Assembly: GCA_965248435.1 (NCBI GenBank)
Contig: OZ252100.1
Location: forward strand, 5,312,001 to 5,376,000
Direction: 5' to 3'
From: Candidatus Latescibacterota bacterium
GTDB lineage: Bacteria; Latescibacterota; UBA2968; GCA-2709665
Length of the DNA: 64,000 nucleotides
Shown here: positions 13,444 to 60,724 of the stretch, piece after piece
How the letters are laid out: each line of letters starts with the position of its first letter
Numbering within the stretch: position 1 is the first letter of the stretch
Notes under the pieces: model-generated
The model's database searches: none
Seen by the model: the letters and a program-made list of their open reading frames with translations, nothing else
What the model was told of the DNA's origin: nothing
Translations under genes and position numbers: made by a program

Positions 13444-13606
13444 CCCTACGTGCCTATAATTAGCGAGACACCTCCCCCACAGAAATTAATGAGTAATTGA
13501 GGGCGGAGGAGAGATCAAAGATGAACGGTAACAGCAAAGTCAAGGAGCGTCCGTCGTTGGAGCACCCCGTGCTGAGTGAAGGGAGCTCCAACGAAGCACG
13601 GCCCGA
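13444..13606 (+). mobile_element. IS3-family element B, left-end fragment
   Basis: Identical to 20346-20508. Confidence 0.9.
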
Positions 13607-13646
13607 CTGGCGGGCAGTTGAGCCTAAATATCGGCGAGAGGCGAAC

Positions 13647-39353: not shown

Positions 39354-40466
39354 ATGATTCGGCTGACTCAAATAACCTCCGAGCAGTTGGAGTGGTATCA
39401 AAGAATCACCGGCGGTTTTTATGGAATGGATTTCACCTTTGGAGGACCACCGGGTTTATTCGGATTCTACGGCGAGTTTGATATTTCCAGCGAAGGGCAG
39501 GTTGACTTGGCAAACCTCCTGGTTGCCGATTCCTGTGAACACGGGAAGGACGAGATGATTGCCGAGATTAGTGCCCTGCGACGGACTATCATGGGTAGCC
39601 GGTGGTCTGTCACACTGCGCCAGGAAAACCGACTCGAAGCTGCCTGGGAGGAGTTCAAGATGGAGTTTTTCTCGGGCCCAACGCGTGATGGAACGGTCGC
39701 AACCCACCTATTGCTCTCGCACGACAATCCTGCTGTTTTTAGAGAGCCTTATTTCAATGATAACTTTGAACTGCGTTCTGACCGTGCCCGTCAGAAGTCT
39801 GTCCAGCGAAAGCCAGGGGACTACTATCCTGTAAGTCCAGAGCGAGCCCCTGAGCAGGTTGAGGAAGTTGATGTGACGGAACTTGCACATCGCATTCGGG
39901 ATAAGTCACTGGTGGCGTTCACGGGCGCCGGGTTATCCGCCACGGCAGGTATCCCCACGTTCGAAGGGAAAGGTGGGCTGCAGGAACAATTCCCTATCGA
40001 CAATTACCGTTTTCCTGGTGCTGTTGCCGATTGGATGATACACCGACCTCGTGAGACGGCTTTAATGCTTGGAAAATTCTATACCCGTTTCATGACAGCT
40101 TGTCCCACCCAGGCTCACGCAGCTTTCGCACGATTGGAGAAACACGGGATACTGAAACACATCATTACGGGCAACTTTGACATGCTGCACGAGCGGGCCG
40201 GTAGCCAAAGAGTGCATATCAATGAACCCAAGTACTTTAAGGGCTCAAATGAGGGGTGGGCTTGGATTCAGGAAGGTCAGGTAGTTTTGGTTACAGGCGT
40301 GTCGATGGATGCAAATAATGGTCTGCTGGACTATGCCCGTTACAACGGCCTCCAAATCGCCGTCATAGATCCAGAACGGCCGGACTTCATGCATGCACAA
40401 GACTGGTTTGTCGAGGGTCTCGCTGACGATATCTTGCCGGAACTGACAAGGCTACTCACAACCTGA
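39354..40466 (+). CDS. Sir2/CobB-like domain protein with unknown N-terminal domain
   Basis: FTGAGLSATAGIPTF, IITGNFDMLHERAGS; no Zn-finger cysteines. Confidence 0.85.
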   Translation: MIRLTQITSEQLEWYQRITGGFYGMDFTFGGPPGLFGFYGEFDISSEGQVDLANLLVADSCEHGKDEMIAEISALRRTIMGSRWSVTLRQENRLEAAWEEFKMEFFSGPTRDGTVATHLLLSHDNPAVFREPYFNDNFELRSDRARQKSVQRKPGDYYPVSPERAPEQVEEVDVTELAHRIRDKSLVAFTGAGLSATAGIPTFEGKGGLQEQFPIDNYRFPGAVADWMIHRPRETALMLGKFYTRFMTACPTQAHAAFARLEKHGILKHIITGNFDMLHERAGSQRVHINEPKYFKGSNEGWAWIQEGQVVLVTGVSMDANNGLLDYARYNGLQIAVIDPERPDFMHAQDWFVEGLADDILPELTRLLTT

Positions 40467-43721: not shown

Positions 43722-44945
43722 TGACCTGCCCCCACCTATGTATCCACATCCAGAGTTAGGATGCGGTTGCAACTAGCGGTCCTAAGACCGTTTCAGGCGC
43801 CGGCGGCCTATAGCCAAGCGAGCTGTGTGGGCGGACCCGATTGTACTGCCGTCGCCACACCTCGGTCAACACCTTTGCCTCCTGCAGCGTCGTGAAGATC
43901 TCACCGTTGAGGAGTTCATCCCTGAGTTTCCCGTTGAAGCTTTCGATGTAGCCGTTCTCCCACGGACTACCCGGCTCGATGAACAACGTCCCGACCTCCA
44001 ACCTCGAGAGCCACTCCCGGACGGCTTTGGCCACGAACTCGGGCCCGTTGTCCGATCTGATGTGTTTCGGGATGCCGTGCCTCAACATCAGCCCGGCCAA
44101 CATCCGTAGAACGTCCCGCGAGCTCTGCTTGCGGGCAACTTCTATCGCCAGGCACTCGCGGGTGAACTCGTCGACCACCGTCAGGAGCTTCAGGGGCCTC
44201 CCTTCCTGGGTCCGATCGAATAGGAAGTCGTAAGCCCAAACGTGGTTGCCGTGCTCCGGTCTGAGCCTGATGCAGGAACCGTCATTGAGCCACAGCCGAC
44301 CGCGCTTCGGCTGTCTGGCGGGCACCTTCAGCCCCTCCTGACGCCAGATCCGCTCCACCCGCTTGTGGTTCACCCGCCAGCCGTCACCCCTGAGCAGGGC
44401 CGTGATCCTACGGTAGCCATACCGCCCGTATTCGCTGGCCAGAGAGACGATGCTCGCGGTCAGAAGCTCCTCGTCGTCTCCCACCCTGGGCGTGTATCGC
44501 TGGGTGCGCCTCACCTGTCCCAGCACACGGCACGCCCGACGCTCGGAAACGGTCAGCACCTCACAGACGTGCCCGACCGTCTGACGCCGACGCGTCGGGC
44601 TTAGAAGTTTCCCCGGGAGGCTTCCTTCAGGATCGAGATGTCCAGAGCCTGGTCGGCGACCAGCCTCTTCAACCGTTGGTTTTCCTGATCGAGCTCTTTC
44701 AGGCGCCGGGCTTGATCGACTTCCATTCCGCCGTATTCACGGCGCCAACGGTAGTAGGTCTGCTCGCTGATGCCGAGATGGCGCGCAGCCTCACCGATGG
44801 TCTTGCCCTCGGAGATGAGGATCTCCGCTTGCCGGAGGTGCCCGATGATCTGCTCTGCGGTATAACGCTTTCTGGCCATAATGACCCCTTTCTGGTTACC
44901 CATATCCTAACTCTAGGAATGGGAACAATCCAGGGGGTCAGGTCA
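43722..44945 (-). mobile_element. IS3-family element C (IS407-group-like)
   Basis: TGACCTG ends; OrfA 44601-44879, OrfB 43756-44559 with WAYDF, SDNGPEF, ENGYIESFNG. Confidence 0.93.
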
Positions 44946-45220
44946 ATCTGGTCCGGCGGGAACTGGCCACCCCATAGGGATCGGTCCGTCCAAACCGGAC
45001 GGACACGCACAGAAAGGACCGTCCGGAACGCTTCCGGGGCAGAAAACACCCCCGGAAGCCCCCGAGATGACGCCGCTTTCAACATGAACATACTCTGAAA
45101 AACTCATATTATACCACGTGATCGAACAAATGGGTTGATCAGAGGTTTTCCCAAAGTGCCGGTTGTTGGACATTTTCCCGAGAGAAAGTCATAGTTTTTC
45201 CGTTGACCGGCTGAGGCTGT

Positions 45221-45256
45221 TTGTATATTTGTGACAGCTTGTATATTTGTGACAGC
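45221..45256. repeat. Perfect 18-bp tandem duplication upstream of operon
   Basis: TTGTATATTTGTGACAGC x2. Confidence 0.85.
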
Positions 45257-45338
45257 TTGGCGGCAACATTTTCGCCTGGGGAAGTGTAGCTTTTTTTGCG
45301 GCTGATTCTGGAAGCAGCTTGGCTTCAGGGAGTGCCTC

Positions 45339-46631
45339 GTGGATGGTCCTCAACACCACACGGTCATCATTGTAGGTGGAGGTCCTGCCGGGCTCGGATT
45401 CGCCGTGGCTTTGGGAGGATGGCATCCCTATTTCCGCGAAGGTCGTCTCATTCGACAGCGCCATCCTGAGCTTGCCTCCTTCCTGGCTGCCTTCAAACGA
45501 TCATTACTAGCACTCAACTTTGAAGAAGCCCTCGATATGGGCATAGCCCCTGTCAAGCTCTTCCGCAATTTGCATCATCCTCAGCGGGAGTTTTGCGGAA
45601 CAAGTGAGATTGCTCTCGAATTTCGGCAAGGAAGGCCGATAGACTACTTACTAATCTCGCAGGAAGAAGTTGGTGGGGTCTGGAATGGAGCTCCCCGAGA
45701 TCTTATATCCATTTCGCCGGGTCATTGGATGGAACTCGCATTCTACCCGCTTGCAGATCATGTACAGGACCTGAGAGTTGACGTAGATGATGTGGACGAG
45801 CCAATTTCGAGGAGAAACCTGGTCAACTATTACCGTTGCATTCCAGGGAAGTTTGGGCAGTCAGACCACATTCGGACGAGAGAAAGGGTTGAACAGATCG
45901 AGCCGCATCAGAGAGGGTTCCTCCTGCGTTCACGAGATCTGTGTACAGGGAACTCACGCCAATATACCTGCAAGTACGTTATCTACGCCGTGGGACAACG
46001 ATGTATTCTTCGTCGATTGAATGTACGAGGTGAGAATTTGAGTTTTGTTACGAATCGCTACAGCAGCCCGGAGGACTTTTCAGGATTTCGTTTCGCTGTT
46101 GTGGGCGGAGGAAGGTCGGGAGACTGGGTGGCAACAGAGCTACACGACGCAGGTCGCCAGGTCTTCTACATAATGCGGCAACCCTTCGCGCGCCACCATA
46201 GATCGGAGGACGATCGCCACTATGGGCGTATCACCGAAATAAAGCGGAGCCGTTCCCCTCGATTCGAGATTCTTTATGAAACTCAAGTAAAAGGATTCGA
46301 AAGGTTCTCCAACGCTGGGAGAGTCATTCTTAGCTCAAGAGGCAAAGAGCGTACTCTTAATGTCGACCACGTTGTTGTAGAAATCGGAGGCATCGCTGAC
46401 TACTCGATTTTCAAAGGGTTTCCTCCCCTAAATCTGTCCGAGATGTATGATCGGCATCGGCTTCAGGTACACCAGTTGTCTACCTATCCGCACAACTATG
46501 AATCAACGGAAATCCCCAACCTCTATCCCGGAGGCTATCTGGCTAAAGGGATCCTGCCCTTCGTTGGAGCAATGCACGGTAGTACGTATCCAATCGTTGG
46601 TGACATAGCGAAAAAGGAGGGAGCTTTGTAG
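45339..46631 (+). CDS. FAD/NAD(P)-dependent oxidoreductase, OSGIN-like
   Basis: IVGGGPAG, GGVW, second VVGGGRSG motif. Confidence 0.8.
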   Translation: MDGPQHHTVIIVGGGPAGLGFAVALGGWHPYFREGRLIRQRHPELASFLAAFKRSLLALNFEEALDMGIAPVKLFRNLHHPQREFCGTSEIALEFRQGRPIDYLLISQEEVGGVWNGAPRDLISISPGHWMELAFYPLADHVQDLRVDVDDVDEPISRRNLVNYYRCIPGKFGQSDHIRTRERVEQIEPHQRGFLLRSRDLCTGNSRQYTCKYVIYAVGQRCILRRLNVRGENLSFVTNRYSSPEDFSGFRFAVVGGGRSGDWVATELHDAGRQVFYIMRQPFARHHRSEDDRHYGRITEIKRSRSPRFEILYETQVKGFERFSNAGRVILSSRGKERTLNVDHVVVEIGGIADYSIFKGFPPLNLSEMYDRHRLQVHQLSTYPHNYESTEIPNLYPGGYLAKGILPFVGAMHGSTYPIVGDIAKKEGAL

Positions 46632-46763
46632 CCGCACCTATCCTCAGCCGCCCATTGATTACCCTCGTACTCGGGGGGGTGTACCACTGTATCCCCATTT
46701 AATTGTGCTGGTCAAACGCTGATTGCCACTCAAGTCTAAGCTAAATCAATCGGGGCTCGATTT

Positions 46764-47075
46764 ATGGAAAAAGTATTCTGTTTTCGCTTCGACTTTGAAA
46801 GCGTTTTCTTCGACAGTAGAGACCGTACAGTTCTCCTGGTACGTGATGAGCTTCAAGAATCGCGTGATGAGTCGTTGTCGAGAGATGCTGAATTTTCAGT
46901 TCTATCTTCACATTCATCCAAGGCAGTCCGCTCAATGCGAACTGCGAAGTCCGATCAAGAAAGCTTTCCAATGGAGATTCCCCTCACTTCGCTCGCAGAA
47001 GATCTTCTATTTCGAAGACAGAGAAGCGAACGATTAGGACTCGAATTGCTCAGCCAGTTGTGGAAGGCCAGTTAA
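46764..47075 (+). CDS. Small hypothetical protein (103 aa)
   Basis: Co-directional ORF filling the operon gap; weak RBS. Confidence 0.5.
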   Translation: MEKVFCFRFDFESVFFDSRDRTVLLVRDELQESRDESLSRDAEFSVLSSHSSKAVRSMRTAKSDQESFPMEIPLTSLAEDLLFRRQRSERLGLELLSQLWKAS

Positions 47076-47153
47076 TGAGAACCTAGCTATGTGCATCATA
47101 CCTGGCAGGACACTCGTCGGGGCTCAATCATTTCCGGCGCAGGAGGAGAGTGA

Positions 47154-48212
47154 ATGTACGATGTATCCGTTGACACGTGCGGAGTTAGAATACAGTTCTT
47201 GATAGAGTGCTCATCACTGCGAGACCTGATTGCGCCTGCTTTTCTTCACCCGGGGCGACATTTCAGAAACAGGGAGGTGACTACCACCATATGGATTTGT
47301 CCTCGGAGTTCGTCATCAAACCTTGAAGGGCAAATGCCTAATAAGCTGAGAAAAGCGTTTGCTGATTTTGGATCTTGGCTCATGAGATACTGCAGGGACG
47401 AAAAAGCATATGAAAGAAGCGATGCGCGAGTGTTCTACAAGGATCAATATGCCGGGTGGTGTTTCCAAGGCCAACAGAATCAGTTCTGCATAGTAGACTT
47501 GGAATCATGGAATGAAACAGGATATGATCATGCGTATTTCTACTATATGATCCTTCGCCCATTAATGTACGAGGCTCTTTGGAAGGAAGGGAGATTCTTC
47601 TTACATGGAGCAGGGCTCCGAAGCGCCGATGACAAGACCATGCTGTTGATTGGGGACAGAAATCACGGAAAGACAACCCTTGGGATAGCTGGATGCTTAT
47701 GCGGGTATAAACTGCTCACTGATGACACCTTGATCTGTCAGTATCGAAGCGAAAATGGTCAGATTCTATTTGATACCATTCAGAGGGAAGTTCACATCGA
47801 TCCTGAGCTTCGACACAGGCTTCCAGGTCTCTCCGCACTCGAGGGTTTAAAGCCTTACGCATCCGAGGAAAAGGAGGTTGGTATACGTCTGTCTGATCTA
47901 TTCCCTCACTCAATAGCTACTGAGCTTTGCAATGTCAATGTACTCGCCTTCCCTCTTATATCTGATGTACCCAACTCCTCACTGCAGGCAATGAACGCAA
48001 GTCATGCGTTTGGCCATCTGGTACTGAACAGCTATACGGGCCTTATCGACAACTCAGCTGATTCGACGCTCCACCAGCTATCGGCTTTTGCGGAGATATG
48101 TAGGAGGGCGAAGTCAGTGATACTTGTATGTGGTAGGGACTCTTACGATGATCCCCGTAAGGCGATCAGGCTGCTAGAAGGTGCGTTTAGCGAGAGTCTG
48201 AAAGTAGCATGA
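47154..48212 (+). CDS. HprK-related kinase
   Basis: LHGAGL...GDRNHGKTT...LLTDD; AGGAGG RBS. Confidence 0.8.
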   Translation: MYDVSVDTCGVRIQFLIECSSLRDLIAPAFLHPGRHFRNREVTTTIWICPRSSSSNLEGQMPNKLRKAFADFGSWLMRYCRDEKAYERSDARVFYKDQYAGWCFQGQQNQFCIVDLESWNETGYDHAYFYYMILRPLMYEALWKEGRFFLHGAGLRSADDKTMLLIGDRNHGKTTLGIAGCLCGYKLLTDDTLICQYRSENGQILFDTIQREVHIDPELRHRLPGLSALEGLKPYASEEKEVGIRLSDLFPHSIATELCNVNVLAFPLISDVPNSSLQAMNASHAFGHLVLNSYTGLIDNSADSTLHQLSAFAEICRRAKSVILVCGRDSYDDPRKAIRLLEGAFSESLKVA

Positions 48213-48279
48213 GACTCGATTCCAAGGCCGTCTCTGTAAAGCAGAGTGGGCATGCTACGGCCAGTGAAAGGGATGAGAG

Positions 48280-49887
48280 ATGAAAACAGTGTTAGTCAGC
48301 GAAACACTTCGGTATAGAGGCTTCAATGGGATGAACAAAGCTCTGCCGGTCTTGGCTTCAAGTCTGTGCAACGCTGGTTTCACCAATGTTGTACAACTTG
48401 ATCTCGAGAGACCAGAGCTCAGTATAACGGATGTCTGCTCAGAAGCCAGAGATGCCGATCTTGTTGCCTTTGCTGGATGTATGACCCCGCAGTGGCCAGA
48501 GCTCGATGTAAGCACAAAGTATGTTGCGGACTACTTGGAAGGCCTCGGAAAGAGGATCCCCATCATCGTGGGCGGGCACGCGGCTAAGAGCGTTGAAAGT
48601 ATAGCTGCCGTGACGCCTTGGATAACAGCTTTTTTCGACGGCGATGGAGAGAAGGCGATTGTTGATATTGTAAAACTCATTGCCGAAGGATGCTTCCGCC
48701 AACGGAAACATGAGGTCACTGGACTTTGTTTCGTTGACGAGTTTGGTCAATTTCACAAATCCATCAGCGATAGGGTGATGGACCTGAATGAGTATGATCA
48801 GAACTACAGGGCGGTCCATATACCACAAGTTCATGATATGAAAATTTTCACTGACAGTCGAGGGAGACAGCTCAAGACTGGCCAACTCTTCACACAGAGG
48901 GGGTGCCCTTGGAATTGCTCATATTGCAGCAAGAGCACGGAGAATAACCTCGTGCCCAGATTGAACGAAGAGGCGATAAGGAGAAACCTCAGGAGTCTAA
49001 AAGCGGAGGGCTATGAGGCTGTCTATCTCGACGTAGATACTTTCACTGTGAACAAGCCTGTTGCGAGAATGGAAGCCGAGATTTTGAAGGAAGAGGGCTT
49101 CTTCTGGGGGTCTAACACGAGAGTAGACATGGTAGACTTGGATTTGATCCAACACCTAGCTAGCAACAACTGTATCTACATGTTCTACGGCGTGGAGCAC
49201 ACGCAGCCAGAGGTTTTGCTAGCGCTGAATAAGTTTAATGGACCCATCAGAAGCCAGACTAGGCAGATAGACTACTACCGTAAAGCGATTCGGAGGGTGT
49301 TCACTTGGATGAACGAAGCCGGCATTCCGAGCGCCTACTTCGTGATTTTTGGACTCCCGAAGGTGCGGCTGGATGACGCTGGGACAGGCAATGAGGGTTA
49401 TGAGCCAACGACACTTGAAGACGATGTTGAGGCGGTTAAATTCGGATTAGACTACTGTAATCCATCCTACTTAAACTTCAATGTACTAAGATTCATGCCC
49501 GGCAGTGCGTCTGCGGATCTCCCGAACCATTCCGCCTTTTCTTGTGTAAGGCCCTCGGGAGACGCTCCAATTGATGCTGGCTACTTTTTGCCTCGCCTTG
49601 TGAGGGCTAATGGATATAAGCTTCAGGAGAATCATCCGGTATACAGACTCTGTGAGTCTGTTGCGGCAAATCAACCAACGACGACGGCGGTTAATCCGCA
49701 GAGAGTTTACGAGTGTGTTCGGAGAGTCATGAATCACATCAATCATAGGATCGATTCATCGAAGAAACCTACAACGTTGTTTATCGATAGGGACATCCTC
49801 TCCCAAGGCCTCGTAAGAAGGGACGAAGAAGGAAGGTACAGTATTGCTCCCCTTAAGGAATTCGATGACCTACCCGCACCACAGTGA
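48280..49887 (+). CDS. B12-binding-domain radical SAM protein
   Basis: IIVGGHA, GDGEKAI, RGCPWNCSYC (CxxxCxxC), GVE. Confidence 0.88.
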   Translation: MKTVLVSETLRYRGFNGMNKALPVLASSLCNAGFTNVVQLDLERPELSITDVCSEARDADLVAFAGCMTPQWPELDVSTKYVADYLEGLGKRIPIIVGGHAAKSVESIAAVTPWITAFFDGDGEKAIVDIVKLIAEGCFRQRKHEVTGLCFVDEFGQFHKSISDRVMDLNEYDQNYRAVHIPQVHDMKIFTDSRGRQLKTGQLFTQRGCPWNCSYCSKSTENNLVPRLNEEAIRRNLRSLKAEGYEAVYLDVDTFTVNKPVARMEAEILKEEGFFWGSNTRVDMVDLDLIQHLASNNCIYMFYGVEHTQPEVLLALNKFNGPIRSQTRQIDYYRKAIRRVFTWMNEAGIPSAYFVIFGLPKVRLDDAGTGNEGYEPTTLEDDVEAVKFGLDYCNPSYLNFNVLRFMPGSASADLPNHSAFSCVRPSGDAPIDAGYFLPRLVRANGYKLQENHPVYRLCESVAANQPTTTAVNPQRVYECVRRVMNHINHRIDSSKKPTTLFIDRDILSQGLVRRDEEGRYSIAPLKEFDDLPAPQ

Positions 49888-50019
49888 TCTGATGTGGACA
49901 GGATTACAGCTTGCAAGACATTCCAACAGCGTTCAGTAGTCCAGAATTCAGATTGCAGCGGCCAGATACAAACTTGCAGTGAGTGGCGAAGACCAGTACA
50001 TAGAGTTATAGATGTTCTA

Positions 50020-50994
50020 ATGACAAAGCTTGTCGTAACTCTTTGGGGCTCAATGAGTCTCTCCGACCTTGAATTTCTGGTAGATAACGGCGTCCAGTGT
50101 TATAGGCTGAACTGTGCCAGATTGTCCAATAGCACGGTGAGGAAACTGATTCAAACGGTGAGGGAGTTACACGCAAGAGTAGGAATTGAGCCCAAGATCT
50201 TTGTCGATCTCCCGGGAAACAAAGCCAGGTTGTGGGCCGATGGAATGGACATTTCAGAAGGATCTAGACTATCGGTGAAGTTGGGAAGTAGTAAAACGAA
50301 TGAGGTTTATATCACTGGGAGCGATCTGATACATGTGATAGAAGTAGGAGATGTTCTCGTTGTCCGCGGGAGAAAGAGAATAGAGTTGCTTGTGGAGCAT
50401 CAAGGAGCTGAGGACATTGTACTGAAAGCGCTTTGTGACGGGAGAATCGGCGGCGGATATCATGTTGTGATAAAGGACAGATACTTCCCATGTCTTCACT
50501 TGACAGAGGAAGACAAGAGCCTGCTTCCTTCGGTGTTCGGCATGCAGCCGGACTTCATTGCTGCGTCATTTGCTGACTCCCCGGGAGTTATGAGTGAACT
50601 TGCACTGCAAGGCGCGAGATCTGGGACTTCTGCCAAGCTTCTGGCGAAGCTTGAATCTCCATCGGCCTTATCCAACATGGAGGCAATCCTGGCTGAATCT
50701 GATGGTGCAGTACTGGGAAGAGATGATCTCTCAGCGTGGATGAGCAGCGATCAAATACGCACACAAGTCGAAAGGACAATTTCGTACTGCAAGAGGAATA
50801 AGATAGTTTCTGTTCCCGCATCGAGCTACTTCAGAAGCCTACTCTCTAACGACTGTTTTTCCGATGATGAAGCAGAAGAATTGGCCAACGTTCTTACTAT
50901 GACCCCCGACTATCTCTACTGCAACGAAACCTCGATTTCCGATCGTTGGCCTATCGTAATCAAGAAAGCAAGAAGCCTCGGTATGCTCGAATAG
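50020..50994 (+). CDS. Divergent pyruvate-kinase-like protein (no C domain)
   Basis: TKLVVTL, YRLNC, DLPGNKAR, AASF, AKLES, GRDDL, NETS. Confidence 0.75.
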   Translation: MTKLVVTLWGSMSLSDLEFLVDNGVQCYRLNCARLSNSTVRKLIQTVRELHARVGIEPKIFVDLPGNKARLWADGMDISEGSRLSVKLGSSKTNEVYITGSDLIHVIEVGDVLVVRGRKRIELLVEHQGAEDIVLKALCDGRIGGGYHVVIKDRYFPCLHLTEEDKSLLPSVFGMQPDFIAASFADSPGVMSELALQGARSGTSAKLLAKLESPSALSNMEAILAESDGAVLGRDDLSAWMSSDQIRTQVERTISYCKRNKIVSVPASSYFRSLLSNDCFSDDEAEELANVLTMTPDYLYCNETSISDRWPIVIKKARSLGMLE

Positions 50995-51093
50995 TGTTAA
51001 GATATCCTCTCGTCCCTTCTGATCCAAGAAATGTAACTTCCGGCATCTGTCTTTGTGAAGAAAGCTCACTATTCACATGGGAGAGGTGATAGT

Positions 51094-53016
51094 ATGACTA
51101 TAAGGCATGGTGATTTGCCCGAAACCTTTGGCACGAGATTCTGCCAAGAAGGAATACCCTTACCGGAACTATCCCCAGAAGAGGTCTTATTGGTTCACTT
51201 TTCGAGGTCATTATTGCTTCCCGCCGTTTTGAAGGCTATGAATAAGATTCTCAGAGGTGAAGTTGATTGGAAGGTGTTTCTGGATGGCTCGAAGAGACAT
51301 CGTCTGCACAGTCGGATTTACCATCATTGTGTAAAACACGGCCTGCAGATTCCCTCGCAAGTTACGAGAAGCTTGGAGGACGCTGCTAAGACTGCAAAGG
51401 AGACGACATCTCAGTGTTTCCATGAAATTGAGCAGATCCGAAGAGCTTTGCTAAATGTCGATGCTCCAGTTGTGCTCCAGAAGGGCCCTGCGTTGATCCA
51501 CCAGGTATACGATTCGCAATTTGTCCGACCGTTCAGAGATATTGATCTCTTAACGCCTACGTGTTTCGTCCCAGAGGTTGAGGGATGTCTTAGGAACATG
51601 GGGTATGAGCCCGAGTTCAAGTATTCGGTGACGCGTATCATAAGGCCCGCAACCCCACTGGAAATCCAAAGGAATAAGTACAACTACCACTTGAGGCCTA
51701 TGAGAAAGTTCGAGAACGATATACCAGGAAGTATACCAGTGGAACTTCATTACACAGGATTCTCGAAGGGGAAATTCGACTTTGATAGTATTGTTAAGAA
51801 TAGTGAGAACCTTGAAGCAATTGGGTCTGGATTGAAAGTACCATCTCTAGCCGATCAGGTTATTCTTACCAGCATACACCTCCATCAGCATGTCGGCCTT
51901 GGCCTGCTTATTCAGGAATCTACGTCTGGCTGGGTAGGAATACTTAAGTATCTCTCAGATGTTTACGCTTGTTTGCGTATATACCTAGCGTTTGTAGGTG
52001 ATTGGGCGCAACTAACTGAGCGAAGTATCGACATTCACGCAAATGAAATGCTGGGATATGCACTCTATTATCTCAATATCTTCTATGGGAGGGGGACAGT
52101 TCCAGAGGGGATGGTAAGTTACTTGATTTCCCCAGGTGAGTTAGAAGTTCCACTGTCTGGGAATATCTGCGTTACCGTAGATTCCATCGATCACTTCCTC
52201 CAGCCCGACATCAAGACCGCCACTAGCACGTACGGCCCAGCCCTATGGATGCTTAATCTGCCGAATGTGATCAAGAGGCTTCGCAATGAGTTTGATAGTT
52301 GGAATGCACAGGATGGACATATGCTGGCCGCGCGTTGTCATCGCGTGGCTACCGATTCTCTTGTTGACGGTATGCCCGATGACGAGACCTGGAGGCTGGC
52401 TGAAGAGCAATCTATTGACGAGGATAATCCTAATCGTAGAGGGTTTTTCAGAACGCACTTGGCGCAAGGATTATGGCCTAGTCAAGGTGGAGTAAAAGGG
52501 TATTTGCGTCTTTTGTGGAACGATCAGCATTTGTTCATAAGAACCAGGGTGACAGCAGATTGTATCCATTATGTGTCTTCCGATAGCATCAGGCCAGGCG
52601 AGATGGTGACTTTTCATGTCTCCAACCTATTGGATAAAGAAATGACCGTGAACAAGGTAAGCGTCCAAATTCGAGAGGGTGGATATGGAGAGTTAAACCG
52701 TTCAATGCTCGGCGAAAAATTGTTGGAAAATGTCGTGCGTCTTGAAGACGTACGTCTCCTTGTTTGCACATCAAGCGATGAATACTGTCTCGTTGTTGGC
52801 ATTCCATGGGATGCAATGAGTATGATTCCATATCCTGGATTTTCTTTCGGATTCGATTCAGAAATACGGCACTGCTATCTAGTTCGCCGTCCGTTTAATG
52901 AATTTCCACAACCGAAAACAGTTATCAGATGGTCAGGCGGGCCGTTTCCAATGTCACACTACCCAGAATTCTATGGTACCGGAATTCTGTGGGACAGATC
53001 TGCAATGAGTAGGTAA
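51094..53016 (+). CDS. Nucleotidyltransferase-family protein with C-terminal CBM9/DOMON-like domain
   Basis: QKGPAL..VY..RPFRDIDLL, VELH; LLWNDQHLFI..V..D and IPW..GFD. Confidence 0.75.
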   Translation: MTIRHGDLPETFGTRFCQEGIPLPELSPEEVLLVHFSRSLLLPAVLKAMNKILRGEVDWKVFLDGSKRHRLHSRIYHHCVKHGLQIPSQVTRSLEDAAKTAKETTSQCFHEIEQIRRALLNVDAPVVLQKGPALIHQVYDSQFVRPFRDIDLLTPTCFVPEVEGCLRNMGYEPEFKYSVTRIIRPATPLEIQRNKYNYHLRPMRKFENDIPGSIPVELHYTGFSKGKFDFDSIVKNSENLEAIGSGLKVPSLADQVILTSIHLHQHVGLGLLIQESTSGWVGILKYLSDVYACLRIYLAFVGDWAQLTERSIDIHANEMLGYALYYLNIFYGRGTVPEGMVSYLISPGELEVPLSGNICVTVDSIDHFLQPDIKTATSTYGPALWMLNLPNVIKRLRNEFDSWNAQDGHMLAARCHRVATDSLVDGMPDDETWRLAEEQSIDEDNPNRRGFFRTHLAQGLWPSQGGVKGYLRLLWNDQHLFIRTRVTADCIHYVSSDSIRPGEMVTFHVSNLLDKEMTVNKVSVQIREGGYGELNRSMLGEKLLENVVRLEDVRLLVCTSSDEYCLVVGIPWDAMSMIPYPGFSFGFDSEIRHCYLVRRPFNEFPQPKTVIRWSGGPFPMSHYPEFYGTGILWDRSAMSR

Positions 53017-53131
53017 CTCTTCGTTTCCCTTCGTAGGAACAATCTTCGTGACAGAAAGATGAGTGTCCAATGAGAACTTATGGGAGTATCACTACTAAGA
53101 ACCAAGCTTCGATTTCAAATCGGTGTCGAAT

Positions 53132-53938
53132 ATGAGACGCGGTCACCTGGGGCAAGTGGACCTTGTCGAAGTAGGACCAGGTGTGCGCGTCATCCGAAAG
53201 AAGATGAAAGCGAAGTGCTACTTGGAGCGCCATCTCTTTGCCCTACAGAAGCTAAAGAATACAGGAGTCGTTCCGCGGCTAGATGTCTATCCGGAGGAGC
53301 TTACAATAGACTATGAGTACGTAGACGGAGCACATCTCGAGGACCTGAATCCCGAGACGTATGGTGACTGCCTCGAGAGTGCGGGAGCAGCAATGGCATT
53401 GATTCACTCCTTTCCCTTTAATACCTATGGTTTCGTTGACAGCCTTTCAGCAACGCGGAACGATTGGTGGTCTATTCAGGATGAACGATTCGATCAAATG
53501 CTCAAGGTGTGCCGTGAACATGGGGCAATCGGAGAAGATCTGAACATGAAAATAGACAGGGCATACAAAGAGCTTCGGTCTGGACTACCACTCGAGTACG
53601 ATTCCTGTCTTTCGCACTGTGACTTCAGTTCAGATAACCTGCTTTTCTGGCGTAAGGGCGACTTTTGGAAGTGTACTGTTATTGATTTCGACCATGCGCA
53701 GGCGTGTCCCCCGCACTATGACTTCGGGCGGGTTCAATTTGACTTGTTTGATAAGTGGCCTATGTACAAGCATTCCTTTTGCGATGGCTATAAAGCAATA
53801 AGAGTTCTTCCGGACCTAGAAAGGCTAATGCCCATCTATAGGGTATTGTGGCCACTGGACCTGATGGCTTGGGGATGTCGAAACGGAGCTAGTGGTCTTG
53901 TAAGGGAAAATGTCCAGATCCTTCAAGAGATAGATTAG
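53132..53938 (+). CDS. APH/choline-kinase-family phosphotransferase
   Basis: HCDFSSDNLL and IDFD motifs. Confidence 0.85.
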   Translation: MRRGHLGQVDLVEVGPGVRVIRKKMKAKCYLERHLFALQKLKNTGVVPRLDVYPEELTIDYEYVDGAHLEDLNPETYGDCLESAGAAMALIHSFPFNTYGFVDSLSATRNDWWSIQDERFDQMLKVCREHGAIGEDLNMKIDRAYKELRSGLPLEYDSCLSHCDFSSDNLLFWRKGDFWKCTVIDFDHAQACPPHYDFGRVQFDLFDKWPMYKHSFCDGYKAIRVLPDLERLMPIYRVLWPLDLMAWGCRNGASGLVRENVQILQEID

Positions 53939-54633
53939 GCACCCGATTCTTGAAATCGTTTCTATTCTGTCATAGCTATTGCCTCATCCTCCTCTAGGGG
54001 AAAGAATGCGCGTAGACTCACGCAAAGACCATCAGAAACTTTACCCATGGTTTCCAACCTGCTGTTAACGTCACCCCGCTCAATCTGACCTCGATACTTC
54101 CCCGGAGGATTTTGCTCAACTGCTTAGGCGATTTGGAATCGAAGACGCTGTTCTCTGGGTTCTTGAGCATATGGATCGGACACTGAATACTGGTATAGTT
54201 CCCTCACTTAATTTGCATTCATGTCTAAGTGAGTCTTGGCTAGCCAGTGCGTATGCCCTAGCGGTAAACTGCGCGGTTGGAACGGGACAATGCGTAAGCG
54301 ACTTCATTACAAGAAGCGTCGAGAGATTCTCGTGGAATCGTCTCCAAACAGTGGGGCTCCCCCCGGCCCTGTATCTGAGTAAGGAAGTCATAATAATCTG
54401 GCCAACGTCTTAATCAAGATTGTGGAGAAGAATCCAGTATATGCATTGTTAATTCGCCGCTAGATCGCCCCTTTGGCTTTGCTTGGTTACGGACCCAGGG
54501 GTCCGAATTCCTTTGGAGCAACCCTACCGCCGTTCACATCTCTTCAAACTGAGGAGTTAAGGTTTTCACCTCCCTTTCGGCTCTGGACACCGCAGGGGGA
54601 GCGACACTGAAGAAATCTCGGGCTCACACTCAA

Positions 54634-54854
54634 ATGGCCGCAAGAACCCATTCGGAACTGTTGAAGCGCTATCTGGGCTCCCAGAAACAGAAAGTAGCTA
54701 TACTGCTTGTATTACTGCTGGGAAACGCCACGCTCTTGCTTATTTATCCCCAAATTATCCGCACTTTCATCGACACTGCCAAAAGTGGTGGGTCACTGTC
54801 GACGCTAACTCAACTTTCCATTTTGTTTATTGTTCTAGTCATCGTGCGACAAGG
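54634..54854 (+). pseudogene. ABC transporter permease/ATPase N-terminus truncated by IS3
   Basis: LLKRYL...PQIIRTFID transmembrane start. Confidence 0.7.
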
Positions 54855-56104
54855 TGAGGCGTTTTGAAATTGTGGACACACCGAGAACCAAAGTATCTTC
54901 CGTCAGGAGGTGTGTCTATGAAAGGGAAACCGAAACGGACATTTGATTCCGATTTCAAGCGTGAAGCAGTCCGGATCGCGGATGCCGGCGACGTGACGGA
55001 TCGGCAGGTAGAGCGAGACCTGGGGCTGTACCAGGGAGCGATCCGCACGTGGCGCAAGGAACTTGAAGCCGACCCTGAAGAGTCCTTCCCGGGTACGGGG
55101 CACCAGAAGCCCCTGGAGGAGGAGAACCGCCGTCTGCGTCGCGAGCTGGAGATCGCTCGTGAGGAACGGGACATCCTAAAAAAAGCAGTCGCCATCTTTT
55201 CAAAGACACCGAAAGCCGGTTCCGGTTCATGAGGGACCACCGCTGGGAATTTTCGGTGGAGAGGATGGCGAAGGTCCTGGAGGTATCCAAGAGCGGTTTC
55301 TATGCCTGGCTGCTGCGGCCCGAGAGCGCCAGAAAGAGGGCCCGGCGGCTTCTGGACGCCCGAGTCAGAGCGGCGTTCGAGGCGCACAAAGCTCGCTACG
55401 GCAGCACGAAGATCGCCCGGTATTTGACCGGCCAGTGCCATCCGTGCAGCCGCACGCGAGTTGCCCAATCAATGCGCCGGCAGGGCCTGCGGTCGAAGGT
55501 CGCACGGAAGTTCAGGGCCACAACGGACTCGAATCACCATCTGGCTGCGGCGCCGAACCTGCTGGATCGCAATTTTGACATCGACGCGCCGAACAGGGTG
55601 TGGGCCAGCGACATTACGTATCTGCCGAGCAAGGCTGGCTGGTTGTATCTGGCGGTCTTCATCGACCTGTTCTCGCGGCGCATCGTCGGGTGGTGCGTGA
55701 GCACCAGCCTGCGGCACGAGATGGTCCTCAAGGCGCTCTCGCGTGCTATCCGTGCCCGGCGTCCGCCAAAGGGGCTGATGATCCACTCCGACCGCGGCAT
55801 CCAATACTGCTGCGAGGGGTTCCGGGAAAAGATCGCCGAATATGGGTTCGTCCAGAGCATGAGCCGAAAGGGGAACTGCTGGGACAACGCAGTGTCCGAG
55901 TCCCTTTTCCGGTCCCTCAAGACCGAGTGGGCTTACCACATCGACCTGGACGACCTCGAGCACGCCGAGCCAGAACTCTTCGAATACATCGAGGTCTTCT
56001 ACAACAACCAGCGGCTGCACGCGTCTTTGGATTACGTATCTCCAGCCGCCTTCGAACACCAAAAAGCGGCTTAGTTCACCGTCCACTTTTTCAAGGCCAC
56101 ATCA
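54855..56104 (+). mobile_element. IS3-family element A, copy 4
   Basis: OrfA 54918-55232, OrfB 55229-56074. Confidence 0.95.
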
Positions 56105-56329
56105 CAATTCGTCGGATCGCTAATCGTAGACAGAGATTTCAAATGCTGTCAGGATGGATTTGGGCAAGATACACCGGATGCTGGCAGGCCTTGCTGCACG
56201 TTTTGGAGACCGAGTTACACGCAAACGGCAAGAAACTAAATGGGCACAAAATTCTCCTTGCTTCAAGGTCACGCCCTCCATGTATGCCCTTTAATCTTGA
56301 ATTAACCCCGCAGCCACAGGGGAGGAAGT

Positions 56330-56995
56330 ATGCAGGAACTCAATATTGAAGCTTTTTTTTCAGTTCCGAAAATCGATTCTCCGCCTGCGCGATATTATAA
56401 AGACACACATAGAGACGAATTCCAGTTCTGCAAAGACGAGACCGGTGTAGAAGGGCTTGTAATGGAGTTCGGGGTCTTCGAAGGTAAAAGCATCAACGAT
56501 ATCGCACGCGTTTGGACCGATCAGCAAGTTTACGGTTTTGACAGTTTTGAGGGGCTACCTGAAGATTGGGATATGGGAGATGGCGTAGTATTTACAAAGG
56601 ACAGGTTTTTTAACGCAGGGGGCGTTTTGCCCGACGTACCCGATCATGTGACGTTAATAAAAGGCTTCTTTGACGCAAGCTTGCCGGGTTGGTGGAACGC
56701 AAATAAAAACCCAATTTCATTTTTAAATATTGATTCCGACCTTTATTCTTCTGCAATCTTCATTTTAGAGACACTAAATGACTACCTGTTACCTGGTGCG
56801 ATTGTGCGGTTCGACGAACTATGTGATTGGCGACTTTTCGATCCCCGGGAAACGCGCCCGCCAAAACATAAATATTACACTTGGGCTGAAAATGAATGGA
56901 AAGCCCTAAACGAATGGATTTCCAAATACGACCGGGAAGTCGCACCTTTAGCTCGCAACTACGCATTTTCGAGTATCGTACGAATCATAAAATGA
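56330..56995 (+). CDS. TylF/MycF-like O-methyltransferase
   Basis: EFGVFEG, GFDSFEGLPEDW, IDSDLYSS, FDE. Confidence 0.85.
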   Translation: MQELNIEAFFSVPKIDSPPARYYKDTHRDEFQFCKDETGVEGLVMEFGVFEGKSINDIARVWTDQQVYGFDSFEGLPEDWDMGDGVVFTKDRFFNAGGVLPDVPDHVTLIKGFFDASLPGWWNANKNPISFLNIDSDLYSSAIFILETLNDYLLPGAIVRFDELCDWRLFDPRETRPPKHKYYTWAENEWKALNEWISKYDREVAPLARNYAFSSIVRIIK

Positions 56996-57021
56996 CTTAT
57001 GGTGTGCCAGGGGCAGTCAGC

Positions 57022-57142
57022 GCGTAACAGGCAGTTTGTACGTCAGTCGCTTCGCTTCTTCGGCATGGCGGAAACCCCGGCTCCACACAACAATCCTAAC
57101 CCCACTCACGCCGGAGTCACAAACTGCCCAGACGCGTTACAC
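57022..57142 (+). repeat. attC-like site
   Basis: GCGTAACAGGCAGTTTGT...ACAAACTGCCCAGACGCGTTACAC. Confidence 0.8.
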
Positions 57143-57199
57143 GCAAGCACCCCACGGAACCACAGAACCAAGAAGCTGCCATTTCTGGGAGGTACTGAA

Positions 57200-58018
57200 A
57201 TGAAGCGCGGGCAATTGGCGAAGGTCCACAGAATCAGATCCGAATCCGGGTACGAGGTCATCCGTAAGGAAATGACTTCGATCGATTTCCTGAAGAGGCA
57301 CCTGAAGGTGATGGACCAACTCAAGGAGACTGGCATAGTCCCAGTACTGGTCAGCGTCGATGAGGCGAAGATTGCCCTTGAATACGAATTTGTAGATGGC
57401 AGGCATATCGATGAAATAGAAGAAGCCGAGCATGATCAAGTCTTCCGCATGGCAGGAGTCGTTCTGGCTCAGATGCACACCCATCATCTAGACGGCTTTG
57501 GAGTAGTTGACAACCTTAAGAAGGCAGAATCAGACTGGTGGTCTATCCAAGATGAGCGAATTGATCGGAAGCTATCGGTTTGCCTGGAATTCAAGACCCT
57601 GGAACAGCGGGAAGCAGACCGACTACGCGACATCTACTTCGAGCTTAGATCGTCTCTATCCGAGGAACACGAGTCTTGTCTAAGTCATTGCGACTACCGA
57701 TCGGACAATCTTCTTTTCATGAAGATGAAAGGCAATTGGAAGTGCATCGTCATAGATTTCGATCACGCTCAAGGAGCTCCTGCGCACTTCGACTTCGGTA
57801 GAATACAACTTGACCTGTTCGACCGTTGGCCAACACACAGAGACTCTTTCTGCCTAGGATACGAGAGCGTAAGACCATTGCCCAATCTGGCTGGAACACT
57901 ACCCGTCTACAGGATCCTATGGCCGCTCGACCTGTTGGCGTGGGGTTCCATCAATAAGGCTGAAGGTCTCACAAGTCGCATGAAACGACTGCTGGAAACA
58001 GAAAACGATCTGATTTAA
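57200..58018 (+). CDS. APH-family phosphotransferase, paralog of 53132-53938
   Basis: HCDYRSDNLL, IDFD; GGAGG RBS before ATG 57200. Confidence 0.85.
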   Translation: MKRGQLAKVHRIRSESGYEVIRKEMTSIDFLKRHLKVMDQLKETGIVPVLVSVDEAKIALEYEFVDGRHIDEIEEAEHDQVFRMAGVVLAQMHTHHLDGFGVVDNLKKAESDWWSIQDERIDRKLSVCLEFKTLEQREADRLRDIYFELRSSLSEEHESCLSHCDYRSDNLLFMKMKGNWKCIVIDFDHAQGAPAHFDFGRIQLDLFDRWPTHRDSFCLGYESVRPLPNLAGTLPVYRILWPLDLLAWGSINKAEGLTSRMKRLLETENDLI

Positions 58019-58085
58019 GGCGTGGGCAACCGGCGAATAAAACAAGAGGGCGCGCACAACCATCGCCTGCATTCAGGACGAGAGG

Positions 58086-58512
58086 TTGGTGCGCAATCGA
58101 GTCCCTTACCTAGCTTACAAGGCCTTTCAGTTCAATACTTGGAAGTCGGGAGTCCGGTGTTGGGAAGAAATGTCGCGCATCTTGGTAAAGAACGGTTTGT
58201 TCCTGCTCGTGATACTGTCAACAAGCCGAGACATCCCTCAGGGGAGCAAAGATGATCCCAGACATTGGCACAACTTTCCTCTCGCCAATTGAACATAAGA
58301 GAGGTATCACCTACCACCACTACTCGAAAGGAGAAGTTGAAGAGCTAAGAGTCAGGAACGTGTTGAGGATAATCGACGCACACGAGTCTACGGCGATTAG
58401 GACGGATGAACTAGATGGTCACAGGGTATGTGGAATTGAAGTTACTTTTATGCCACCTATGATTCTCGAAATGCCCAAGGAGGTGCCATACACTTATGAA
58501 ACTGATTACTGA
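58086..58512 (+). pseudogene. Methyltransferase-like C-terminal remnant
   Basis: EMSRILVKNGLFLL then frameshift to HHYSKGEVEEL. Confidence 0.4.
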
Positions 58513-59461
58513 ACGTGTACCCGAAGAACTAACTCCCAAACATGGCATGAAGTTAACCCCTGAACAAAGCGAGTTACTACCATCTGAGGAGGAGATAGCC
58601 CACTATAATGAGCATGGCTGGTACATATCGAAAGAGATTCTATCTGACGCTGAGATTGAAGATGCTTTTGCTGGTAGCGAACGTCATTACTCAGGTGAGC
58701 GTGACTATAGTCTTCCTATTCAAATTAGGAGTTTCTTAGATTGGACACCTGAGAAAGGAGAGGGACTACGGCTTAATGATTACATTGTAATACAGAATTT
58801 GCAAATACAAAAATTGGCATTTAATGCGCTAATAGGGGCGATTGCGTCACGCCTTTCCGGCAGTGATCGAATAAGGCTTTGGAATAGCCAGCTTATTTAT
58901 AAACCCTCCCAAGTTCAAGATGACAGGGTGAAGATTGGATGGCATGTCGATCGCGCTTACTGGAGGACTTGCACATCCGATCGAATGCTAACTGCCTGGA
59001 TTCCCTTACATGATTGTGATGAGACCACGGGAACCATGATAATGCTTGACGGTAGCCATCGGTGGCCTAGTAATGCGTCAGTGGATGAATTGAGAAGGGG
59101 GAAGACTTTCCTTATTCACGCGATTCCCGAGAGCTCTATATGTTCAGATGCATCCGAATTAGAAGCCAGGATTAGTTCATGTGGAATGCCGATCAACAAA
59201 GTGCCCATGAATCTTCATGCTGGACAAGTATGTTTTCATAATTGTCTTACATTTCATGGTAGTGGCCTGAATCGGAGTACAACAGACCGTCGTGTGGTTG
59301 TTATTCATCTGCAAGATGGAGAGAACAGATATAGAGTCTCTAAAGATGAGTCTGGCGAAGTCCATAGATATAACAACGATCTGATGTGTAGAAAATTGTC
59401 GGACGGCAGTCCGGATTATTCAGATCCTATCATATGTCCACTGTTGTGGGAGAATAAATGA
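58496..59461 (+). CDS. Phytanoyl-CoA dioxygenase (PhyH) family protein
   Basis: WHVD, TAWIPL, GSHRW, FHGSG..N. Confidence 0.9.
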   Translation: MKLITERVPEELTPKHGMKLTPEQSELLPSEEEIAHYNEHGWYISKEILSDAEIEDAFAGSERHYSGERDYSLPIQIRSFLDWTPEKGEGLRLNDYIVIQNLQIQKLAFNALIGAIASRLSGSDRIRLWNSQLIYKPSQVQDDRVKIGWHVDRAYWRTCTSDRMLTAWIPLHDCDETTGTMIMLDGSHRWPSNASVDELRRGKTFLIHAIPESSICSDASELEARISSCGMPINKVPMNLHAGQVCFHNCLTFHGSGLNRSTTDRRVVVIHLQDGENRYRVSKDESGEVHRYNNDLMCRKLSDGSPDYSDPIICPLLWENK

Positions 59462-60175
59462 CGCCGGGCAATTTTGGTGCCTTGGCAAAGTCTGGGGTTT
59501 GATTGGACACTCAGCGAGCAGTAAGAATGTTAGATATTTCTTTTCTAAAGGGCTGTCTAATTTCCATATTTGGACCAACTCCTAACGAGTCCGTTTTCGA
59601 AGTGGATGTAGAATAGGGTTCGCCGCTTCATTGCGCCTGTATACCCACTGTTCAGTCGTGGCCCAGGCGCCCGTCGTCTCGTTTATGGTTGTAGGAGTAC
59701 CCCAGCAAGCTCTTGCCTCCCTCTTTTGACATGCCCCCTCTAGCTGGCCGATCGCGAGCACGCGCCGTCGACACTCCAGATTTGTCGGAGGGTTTCCCGT
59801 TCGGTTTGTCGGGTTGATTGACGGACGTGACGATCTGGTTGGTACGAAAGATTGCAACTCCATGCCCCGAACTTAGAGGAATTGAGAAGTACTGACGCCC
59901 GGATGATTTTGGAGCATGTCGTTCCTGAAGAAGAAGAGAAGAGAGCGATCCTTCGAGGTATGAGCCAAGCTGAGGTCCACCTGACAAATCCGAAAGTCTT
60001 CTGTAATTGATTTCACGCGGTTACCCGCTCTGGACTCACCTGAATGGGCCAAATTTCCGGAAGCTTATGAGGTCAGGCAATTTACCATAAGAGATCTCAA
60101 TGGTCATAGGTTTCATTTTCACAACAGTGTTGAACTGTGAGGGAAGTCATTTATAGAATCAGTGAGCCAGGTGAC

Positions 60176-60724
60176 ATGATCGACAAACTAGATAAGAGAG
60201 AGGGAGCCCTGCTCCCACACGTCTCTCTAAGCCGTCCTGTGACGGTCACGATGTGTTTGGTGGCCCTCATGGTAGTCGGGGTGTTGGCGCTTAAACGAAT
60301 TCCGATTCAGGATTTTCCTTTTGGACTTGAGGCCAGGACAATTTCGGTATGGGTTCCTGTGCAGAGGAATACGCCAACGATAGAAAAGGATCAGTACATC
60401 GCACAGCCTATGATAGAGTACCTGAAGGCCGTAAAAGGGTTGCGGAGGCTGTGGACGAGCAGTGAAACCTGGGGCGTCCATACTCGCCTCGAGTTTCGGA
60501 ACGACATGGACATGGCCCTAGCATATGGCAAGGTAACGGAGGCAGTTGAGCTGATGAGGCCTTTGCTGCCTGAGGAGGTTCGCCAAGACATCAGAATTTG
60601 GAAATACGACAAGGATGCAGATGAGGAGATTCTCTGGATCGGCATCTCCATGCCGGATCACGTTGAAAATTACCACGATTACATACATACTACGGTGCAG
60701 CGGCCCTTGGAGCGAATTGATGGG
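60176..60724 (+). pseudogene. AcrB/AcrD/AcrF RND permease N-terminal fragment
   Basis: SLSRPVTVTM...PLERIDG; truncated by the repeat. Confidence 0.75.

Follow-up and report, generated by a model that had tools for sequence, protein, structure and literature searches.

The locus examined here raises the question of what a run of kinases, a nucleotidyltransferase and several modifying enzymes would act upon in a setting with no scaffold-forming enzyme. It lies in a 64,000-nt stretch of a Candidatus Latescibacterota genome (contig OZ252100.1, positions 5,312,001 to 5,376,000), hereafter the window, and all coordinates below are window positions unless another locus is named. The gene run (45339-54854) is co-directional on the forward strand and is followed, beyond an insertion sequence (IS), by further enzyme genes; we refer to the whole as the island. 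From sequence comparisons we tentatively read it, with less than even confidence, as the IS-bounded remnant of a horizontally acquired phosphopeptide-tailoring cluster of the kind that modifies peptides made on ribosomes and altered after translation (RiPPs), now incomplete. The one new element of the island is the pairing of its HprK-like kinase with a barrel-only homologue of pyruvate kinase (PK).

All the genes listed in the initial annotation are present, in the order and on the strand given there, as Pfam and NCBIfam scans and the translations show (Table 1); these include the truncated ABC exporter before the IS and the TylF, second APH and PhyH genes after it. The lower GC content noted for the run is likewise real (44-51% in the island genes vs 56.6% in the genome). 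All catalytic motifs checked are intact, namely the P-loop, CX3CX2C, DxD, HxDxxxxN/DFD in both APH kinases, HxD and two GxGxxG motifs.

The HprK-like kinase and its pyruvate-kinase neighbour

The kinase has no Pfam match, and its score against TIGR04352 (17.1 bits, E 2.2e-3) does not reach the curated cut-off of 200. An exhaustive HMMER search recovered 569 relatives, and among the 30 closest of these 28 match TIGR04352 and 22 match TIGR04355 (E<=1e-3). Furthermore, a profile of the family matches solved HPr kinases (3tqf, 1.4e-6) and PEPCK over the segment containing the His, P-loop and DD positions. The P-loop of the window kinase (GDRNHGKT) starts at residue 167, and H151, K173, T175, D190 and D191 are invariant across 30 kinase sequences in a segment that aligns to 3tqf, reproducing the signature of the HPr kinase/phosphorylase fold, a GxxxxGK[ST] P-loop with a His before it and DD after it. 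On sequence grounds, the window kinase is a divergent member of the HprK-related superfamily, and the label given to it in the initial annotation stands.

Peptide phosphorylation is rare in natural-product biosynthesis. Characterised HprK-like kinases phosphorylate a peptide Ser with one or several phosphates, and the nucleotidyltransferase that accompanies them adds hexoses to that phosphate (PMC8498205; PMC13381572). In the linear polyphosphorylated peptide (LPP) clusters known from Bacillota (Popov et al., Nat Commun 2026, PMC13381572), the kinase is described as putting several phosphates on one Ser of a linear peptide.

The second member of the pair is the PK homologue, whose start we place at 50020 rather than 49894, its homologues beginning at MTKLVV. 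It scores 100.5 bits against TIGR01064 (cut-off 306.4), and PF00224 is its sole domain. Aligned to a solved PK, it retains the RLN, DLPGxKxR, AKxE, GRDD and NET motifs, which we take from pyruvate kinase enzymology to provide the phosphoenolpyruvate (PEP), Mg and phosphoryl-transfer sites. The protein belongs to a separate small family of barrel-only proteins of ~330 aa, encoded beside kinases or HAD phosphatases; a scan for the barrel in one genome per species confirmed 3 loci of 200 pattern matches.

Kinase and barrel genes are neighbours in all three loci fetched for the kinase clade, namely the window, L003 and L005, and the pair occurs in both gene orders. In the window, the gene for a B12-binding radical S-adenosylmethionine enzyme (B12-rSAM) stands between the two. 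In L003, from a gammaproteobacterial metagenome-assembled genome (MAG), the barrel gene is flanked by an APH gene and by a gene for a kinase 30% identical to that of the window (E 9e-40); two genes off is a radical SAM gene, and the aspartyl-tRNA synthetase (AspRS) gene is beside the pair. In L005, the 2178-nt metagenome contig of kinase P0033, the kinase gene is followed by the barrel gene; a metagenome scan with the kinase alignment recovered only this contig plus distant relatives, and none of the long contigs of P0028, P0030 or P0033. We infer a fourth pair, kinase P0030 and barrel P0008, to lie on one contig (both are on 13,164 nt). A quick maximum-likelihood tree of 68 kinases places the 8 closest in one group, with SH-aLRT support of 89 (below the 95% mark), and this group includes all four PK-partnered kinases (window, L003, L005 and P0030), which are the four of its 8 members that the comparison of gene contexts covered.

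No description of a PK-like partner in such clusters was found in full-text searches of the literature, in which part of the LPP supplement was not readable. The terms 'PF00224' and 'pyruvate kinase' are absent from three of the four LPP supplement spreadsheets, so that a PK domain may still occur in LPP neighbourhoods.

The conserved pairing of the kinase with a barrel-only PK whose catalytic motifs are intact suggests PEP-driven chemistry. A more specific proposal, which we regard as distinctly unlikely, is that the barrel is a PEP-dependent phosphotransferase that builds or extends a (poly)phosphate chain on a peptide Ser together with its HprK-like partner. If this were true, the phosphorylation chemistry would be one not known from ribosomal peptide natural products, and kinase and PK barrel together would define a RiPP family that is new, rare and present in phyla far apart. 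With its two genes, and with at least three unrelated sources to draw on, the pair is amenable to direct in vitro testing.

Peptide, glycan or metabolic enzyme as the possible substrate

If the island tailored a phosphopeptide, its enzymes could act as follows, every step being assigned from family membership. The HprK-like kinase would transfer one or more phosphates onto a peptide Ser, and the PK barrel would use PEP either to lengthen the phosphate chain or to regenerate the nucleoside triphosphate (NTP) at the kinase. Onto that phosphate the NTP_transf_5 protein would then load a sugar or a nucleotide as a nucleotide-activated group, and its carbohydrate-binding-like domain might serve as a guide. 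The B12-rSAM, the flavoprotein, the TylF and PhyH enzymes and the two APH kinases would carry out further tailoring, and an ABC pump would export the product. No PEP mutase, non-ribosomal peptide synthetase (NRPS) or polyketide synthase (PKS) appeared in Pfam and NCBIfam scans of the island genes, and profile scans found no cyclase or RiPP recognition element (RRE) at the island either, in agreement with what had been reported from the sequence at first sight; the scans of the island genes showed no glycosyltransferase. The absence of a scaffold-forming enzyme from the island is as expected for a ribosomal scaffold.

According to the initial annotation, its reading would fall if the genes never occurred together elsewhere or matched a characterised pathway, and the outcome lies halfway. 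The complete set did not turn up in any other genome or contig searched, and in word-indexed searches of 5.8 billion proteins the kinase and the nucleotidyltransferase fusion matched nothing but the window's own proteins. Recurrence is, however, seen for two sub-modules, the first being the kinase with the PK barrel and the second, more widely, an HprK-like kinase in peptide-type settings. Locus L007 has a B12-rSAM gene directly upstream of the kinase gene, together with two SPASM radical SAM genes, NTP_transf_5 and two MsbA-type exporters; L008-L014 give the same kinase match, the annotation covering L007. A lasso B2 protease gene adjoins the kinase gene in L015, and an MsbA-type exporter gene adjoins it in L006, where an FkbM methyltransferase is also encoded. 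What these three annotated loci (L006, L007 and L015) have in common with the window is domain class and not orthology. The initial annotation had proposed a new RiPP-like or small-molecule pathway, a reading that is partly supported: the peptide-type contexts agree with its first half, and the triad of kinase, NTP_transf_5 and exporter without a lasso cyclase is not new in kind, as PMC13381572 describes it for LPP.

Several lines of evidence weigh against a peptide substrate, and the first concerns the machinery that would process one. The archaeal-type signal peptidase SpI (TIGR02228) has no match in the whole genome at E<=0.01, the same profile being positive in 9 of 14 known genomes used as a control, and the lasso B2 protease (PF13471, Transglut_core3) has none in the genome. 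PqqD (PF05402) has two genome matches, each of them megabases away from the window. For an RRE in the N-terminus of the kinase, an hhalign comparison with the genome's PqqD-like protein gave a probability of 0.2%. Asn_synthase (PF00733) has six genome matches, the nearest ~1 Mb from the window.

The search for a precursor peptide was similarly unrewarding. The strict LPP precursor motif gave no match in a six-frame search of 44900-60200, and a loose YxxP motif gave 24 matches that are scattered, none of them at the start of an intergenic small open reading frame (ORF). The 103-aa ORF directly upstream of the kinase has no family match even at E<=10 and no homologue. Its AlphaFold2 model (pLDDT 45.5) is too low in confidence for a fold search, and its codon score, similar to those of ORFs that overlap it in other frames, ranks at the 9th percentile among true frames. 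It bears no similarity to the genome's PqqD-like protein and does not align with the ORF that separates the PK gene from the kinase gene in L003; it has a weak Shine-Dalgarno sequence (SD) and its C-terminal residue is Ser. The ORF thus has no support as a gene and is an unproven candidate substrate peptide. An 80-aa ORF further downstream (54171-54413) has a low codon score, no family match and Ser as its last residue. The 86-aa ORF at 58252-58512 has the highest codon score among the small ORFs (91st percentile of true frames) and no family match. By its sequence it is probably a real small gene, its overlap with the PhyH start codon suggests translational coupling, and its product may be either a substrate of the dioxygenase or a small protein partner.

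Further points on the same side come from the compared loci. The B12-rSAM and NTP_transf_5 proteins of L007 resemble those of the window at family level only, and the radical SAM and APH proteins of L003 show no detectable orthology to the window's. Neither an exporter nor NTP_transf_5 was found on the 11.9-kb contig of L003 or in its MAG (completeness not stated). The PK-barrel family also occurs without an HprK-like kinase, in the Bacillota loci L002 (11716-15107) and L004 (6753-9961). These two share a conserved four-gene module in which a PK barrel and a HAD phosphatase accompany two uncharacterised proteins (~730 aa and ~380 aa); ABC-2 exporters lie alongside, as does a CAAX protease in L004. 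Also encoded in L002 are NTP_transf_5, a carrier protein with an amino-acid:carrier-protein ligase, and ABC_tran with two ABC2_membrane_6 proteins. The large module proteins have no Pfam or NCBIfam match at E<=0.001 (weaker ones only), and PDB sequence searches with the L002 745-aa and 395-aa proteins gave no match. A relationship to HprK was considered for the L002 395-aa and 343-aa proteins and none was found.

The substrate could instead be a small molecule or a glycan, a possibility that we consider rather unlikely. The HprK-like, PK-like and two APH kinases and the nucleotidyltransferase would then add phosphate or nucleotidyl groups, and the B12-rSAM, TylF, PhyH and flavoprotein would methylate and oxidize a surface polymer or a metabolite that is sugar-like or phosphorylated. 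The gene for the NTP_transf_5 protein starts at the SD-preceded ATG at 51094, in agreement with a 640-aa database entry, and the DxD motif of the protein lies at D149. The initial annotation described a fusion of a nucleotidyltransferase with a CBM9 domain; the former part is confirmed, and the match of the C-terminal domain to CBM9_1 (E 0.051) stays below threshold. A full-length paralogue with 42% identity comes close to the CBM9_1 cut-off (23.1 bits vs 23.4). The AlphaFold2 model of the C-terminal domain, built on a 3-sequence alignment, is unusable as a fold (pLDDT 34.8), with model residues 112-294 all-beta. An orthologue of the fusion in genome G004 was uninformative, lying amid IS with no kinase or PK homologue.

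The paralogue belongs to a locus ~200 kb downstream of the island (G000:C1:5564135-5582351; L021, L023), where two further NTP_transf_5 genes are found. One of them (630 aa, 42% identical) carries the same C-terminal domain, and the locus also encodes a free-standing 146-aa copy of that domain and CYTH proteins.

The setting of this paralogue is glycan-type, with GT2, epimerase, GFO/IDH oxidoreductase, aminotransferase and cytidylyltransferase genes and an ABC-2 exporter made up of ABC_tran and two ABC2_membrane_6 proteins, the same set as in L002; it speaks against a peptide substrate and for a glycan, as do the weak CBM9 matches and the company that the L002 barrel keeps with NTP_transf_5, the carrier-protein ligase and carrier protein, the HAD phosphatase and that exporter set. 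TylF- and APH-type enzymes, moreover, classically act on sugar hydroxyls. Against this stand the lack of a glycosyltransferase, sugar-nucleotide synthase or other scaffold enzyme in the island, and an exporter stump that is MsbA/McjD-type, not ABC-2. All three annotated distant HprK-like contexts are peptide- or exporter-type, and the characterised HprK-related kinases in the cited papers all act on protein or peptide.

The L003 pair, located beside the housekeeping AspRS gene with no exporter or NTP_transf_5, fits another explanation by analogy, in which the HprK-like protein, as a kinase/phosphorylase, would switch the PK barrel on and off in a metabolic or regulatory role. The PEP synthase regulatory protein controls PEP synthase and HprK/P controls HPr, and HprK/P-type P-loop proteins regulate carbon-flux proteins; an enzyme and its regulator would also account for the adjacency of the two genes in every clade locus and in either order. 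We nevertheless judge this very improbable, given that members of the barrel family are present in L002 and L004 with no such kinase, and that in the window the B12-rSAM gene comes between the two genes, which lie in a setting of tailoring enzymes.

Boundaries, damage and gene inventory of the island

The coordinates of the island genes and of the IS that bound or interrupt them are collected in Table 1.

Table 1. Features of the island and its flanking insertion sequences (window positions).
Feature	Position	Strand	Evidence or remark
IS3-family element, second type (left boundary)	43722-44945	-	orfA 44601-44903, orfB 43756-44559; HTH_Tnp_1, rve/rve_3
Flavoprotein, two-dinucleotide-binding (FMO/TrxR-like), 430 aa	45339-46631	+	Pyr_redox_3 1.9e-20, Pyr_redox_2, Lys_Orn_oxgnase 4.4e-6
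103-aa ORF	46764-47075	+	Directly upstream of kinase; candidate substrate peptide, possibly no gene
Divergent HprK-like P-loop kinase, 352 aa	47154-48212	+	Remote-homology evidence; strong SD AGGAGG
Class B (B12-binding) radical SAM enzyme, 535 aa	48280-49887	+	Radical_SAM 5.7e-14, B12-binding 4.9e-6
Barrel-only PK homologue, 324 aa	50020-50994	+	PF00224 2.2e-20, no PK C-terminal domain (PF02887)
NTP_transf_5 nucleotidyltransferase with beta-rich C-terminal domain, 640 aa	51094-53016	+	PF14907 8.3e-36
APH-family kinase 1, 271 aa	53123-53938	+	PF01636 3.5e-18; HxDxxxxN at 165, DFD at 188
Stretch without supported gene, 695 nt	53939-54633	.	Contains 80-aa ORF 54171-54413
MsbA/McjD-type ABC exporter, N-terminal stump	54634-54854	+	77 aa transmembrane N-terminus; translation
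IS3-family element, 1250 bp	54855-56104	+	Interrupts ABC exporter gene
TylF-type O-methyltransferase, 221 aa	56330-56995	+	PF05711 7.8e-10, Methyltransf_24
APH-family kinase 2, 339 aa	56999-58018	+	PF01636 4.4e-18; catalytic motifs kept
86-aa ORF	58252-58512	+	Overlaps PhyH start; SD GGGGAG; codon score 0.152
PhyH-type Fe(II)/2-oxoglutarate dioxygenase, 321 aa	58496-59461	+	PF05721 2.9e-19; HxD at H150

The low GC content, together with the lack of a kinase homologue in any of 40 related genomes, indicates a foreign origin of the island, which was damaged by IS. The element at 54855-56104 is one of four copies of the 1250-bp IS3-family element in the window (the others at 2190-3439, 5844-7093 and 37130-38379; >=99.8% identical), the genome holding six full copies in total plus a 56-nt fragment. 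At least three other IS types are present in the window; the left-boundary IS has repeat families D5 and D10 in common with 29120-29437. A 3-bp target duplication is kept by two of the six genomic copies of the 1250-bp element and by none of the four in the window. Around the copy at 54855 the flanks do not match (AGG and CAA), which points to recombination or deletion after insertion, and the left flank of copy 2190 (CCT) equals the right flank of copy 37130, which suggests past recombination between these copies. The frame of the exporter stump continues into the IS up to 54867, making 77 aa altogether. Neither the window nor the DNA up to 5 kb from any IS copy yielded an ABC nucleotide-binding domain, which suggests loss of the remainder of the exporter.

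These data bear on whether the genes belong together at all. The island could be an IS-made mosaic of unrelated foreign fragments without joint function, and the abundance of IS in the window, the scarcity of target duplications, the unmatched flanks at 54855, the missing rest of the ABC gene and the failure to find the whole gene set anywhere else are all in keeping with it. So is the finding in public DNA contigs that unique DNA (44946-54854) has IS on either side: these contigs, from four runs of one sample, end at IS edges, and the 9968-nt island contig begins within the last bases of the left IS, though contigs alone cannot reveal rare IS-free variants. Since copy 54855 lacks a target duplication, its two sides were perhaps not originally contiguous, which also tells against a single phosphopeptide cluster. 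We nonetheless consider a mosaic unlikely. The segment 45339-53938 comprises seven same-strand ORFs with operon-like spacers of ~70-130 nt and no IS within; the kinase/PK-barrel pair recurs elsewhere, as does the combination of kinase, B12-rSAM, NTP_transf_5 and exporter; and GC content is equally low on both sides of the IS, with APH kinases on either side that are paralogues (45% identity over 268 aa). On account of these last two observations, the segment beyond the IS probably has the same origin as the one before it.

Returning to the phosphopeptide-tailoring reading, the pathway in this strain is probably incomplete or silent, given that the exporter is destroyed and that no RRE, leader peptidase or recognisable precursor was found.

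Among the remaining proteins, the two GxGxxG motifs of the flavoprotein lie at residues 13 and 256. The B12-rSAM fits class B, with Radical_SAM above its cut-off and CX3CX2C from C209; its B12-binding match (26.8 bits) is below the cut-off of 32.1, yet at the expected N-terminal position. The NCBIfam subfamilies BchE, ApyD, PhpK and KedN5 all scored far under their cut-offs with this protein, and a PDB sequence search with it gave no match. A reading of the island as a defence system was rejected, none of 10 island proteins having a specific match in PADLOC-DB; the radical SAM enzyme gave a single weak superfamily match to a candidate model (24 bits).

Upstream of the flavoprotein gene, a perfect 18-nt tandem direct repeat in two copies (45222-45257, forward strand) lies 80 nt 5' of the start and is possibly a regulator binding site. 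Promoter and terminator scans showed no excess over shuffled sequences (16 vs 15.0 and 13 vs 13.7, respectively), and neither tRNA genes nor Rfam families were found at the island borders.

Several features of the surrounding window were also recorded. Two segments near its ends (663-962 and 60719-61018), in an Omp85-type gene region, are a 99%-identical duplication, and a 214-aa AcrB N-terminal fragment (60137-60781) stands at the right edge of the island; both are signs of further IS-driven rearrangement. A 399-aa SIR2-domain protein is encoded among IS just upstream of the island (39267-40466) and has weak matches to the PADLOC candidate system PDC-S65. A 2073-aa ORF (13497-19718) contains five tandem 288-nt repeats (15870-17321) and probably encodes a large repetitive surface protein.

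Comparison with known phosphotransfer and peptide-tailoring systems

The two members of the kinase/barrel pair each have well-described relatives. The PK barrel shares the TIM barrel and lid of canonical pyruvate kinase, and its family profile matches solved PKs (3e-33). It differs in lacking the C-terminal regulatory domain and in being only ~25% identical to the genome's own 485-aa PK. The HprK-related kinases A and B (TIGR04352 and TIGR04355) belong to the same superfamily as the window kinase. A PqqD-family protein is a partner in these A/B systems, and there is none near the island.

Among peptide pathways, the tailoring of paeninodin- and pseudomycoidin-type lasso peptides employs the kinases PadeK and PsmK and the nucleotidyltransferase PsmN, as set out in PMC8498205. 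The island resembles it in that both candidate small ORFs (103 aa and 80 aa) end in Ser, and differs from it in that its genome has no B2 protease and that neither a cyclase nor an RRE is located in the island or close to it.

In PMC13381572, an HprK-like kinase with NTP_transf_5 and an MsbA-type exporter, without a lasso cyclase, defines the LPP family; its supplement counts the HprK kinase together with MsbA 140 times and together with an NTP transferase, namely NTP_transf_5, 136 times. HprK-like kinase/NTP_transf_5 systems have come under characterisation only recently, and as of 2026 the final product of the LPP pathway had yet to be established. The island shares with LPP clusters an HprK-like kinase and an NTP_transf_5 protein of the same Pfam family, and of an exporter it retains only the 77-aa MsbA-type transmembrane N-terminus. 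In contrast to LPP clusters, neither the island nor its genome has the archaeal-type SpI, and the island lacks both a discrete RRE and a precursor bearing the LPP leader motif YxxPxVLxHQxIxFETxxS. Its host is Gram-negative-like, with Omp85 and AcrB genes in the window, whereas LPP hosts are Bacillota. Furthermore, the island has extra components in the PK barrel, the B12-rSAM, the flavoprotein and the two APH kinases.

Taken together, these comparisons place LPP and paeninodin-type lasso clusters as the systems closest to the island by sequence, the island being a member of neither. By analogy with them, it would work at least in part like LPP or lasso tailoring. With this copy probably broken, what the island offers is a lead to the kinase/PK-barrel module that sets it apart from both, rather than a producer strain.

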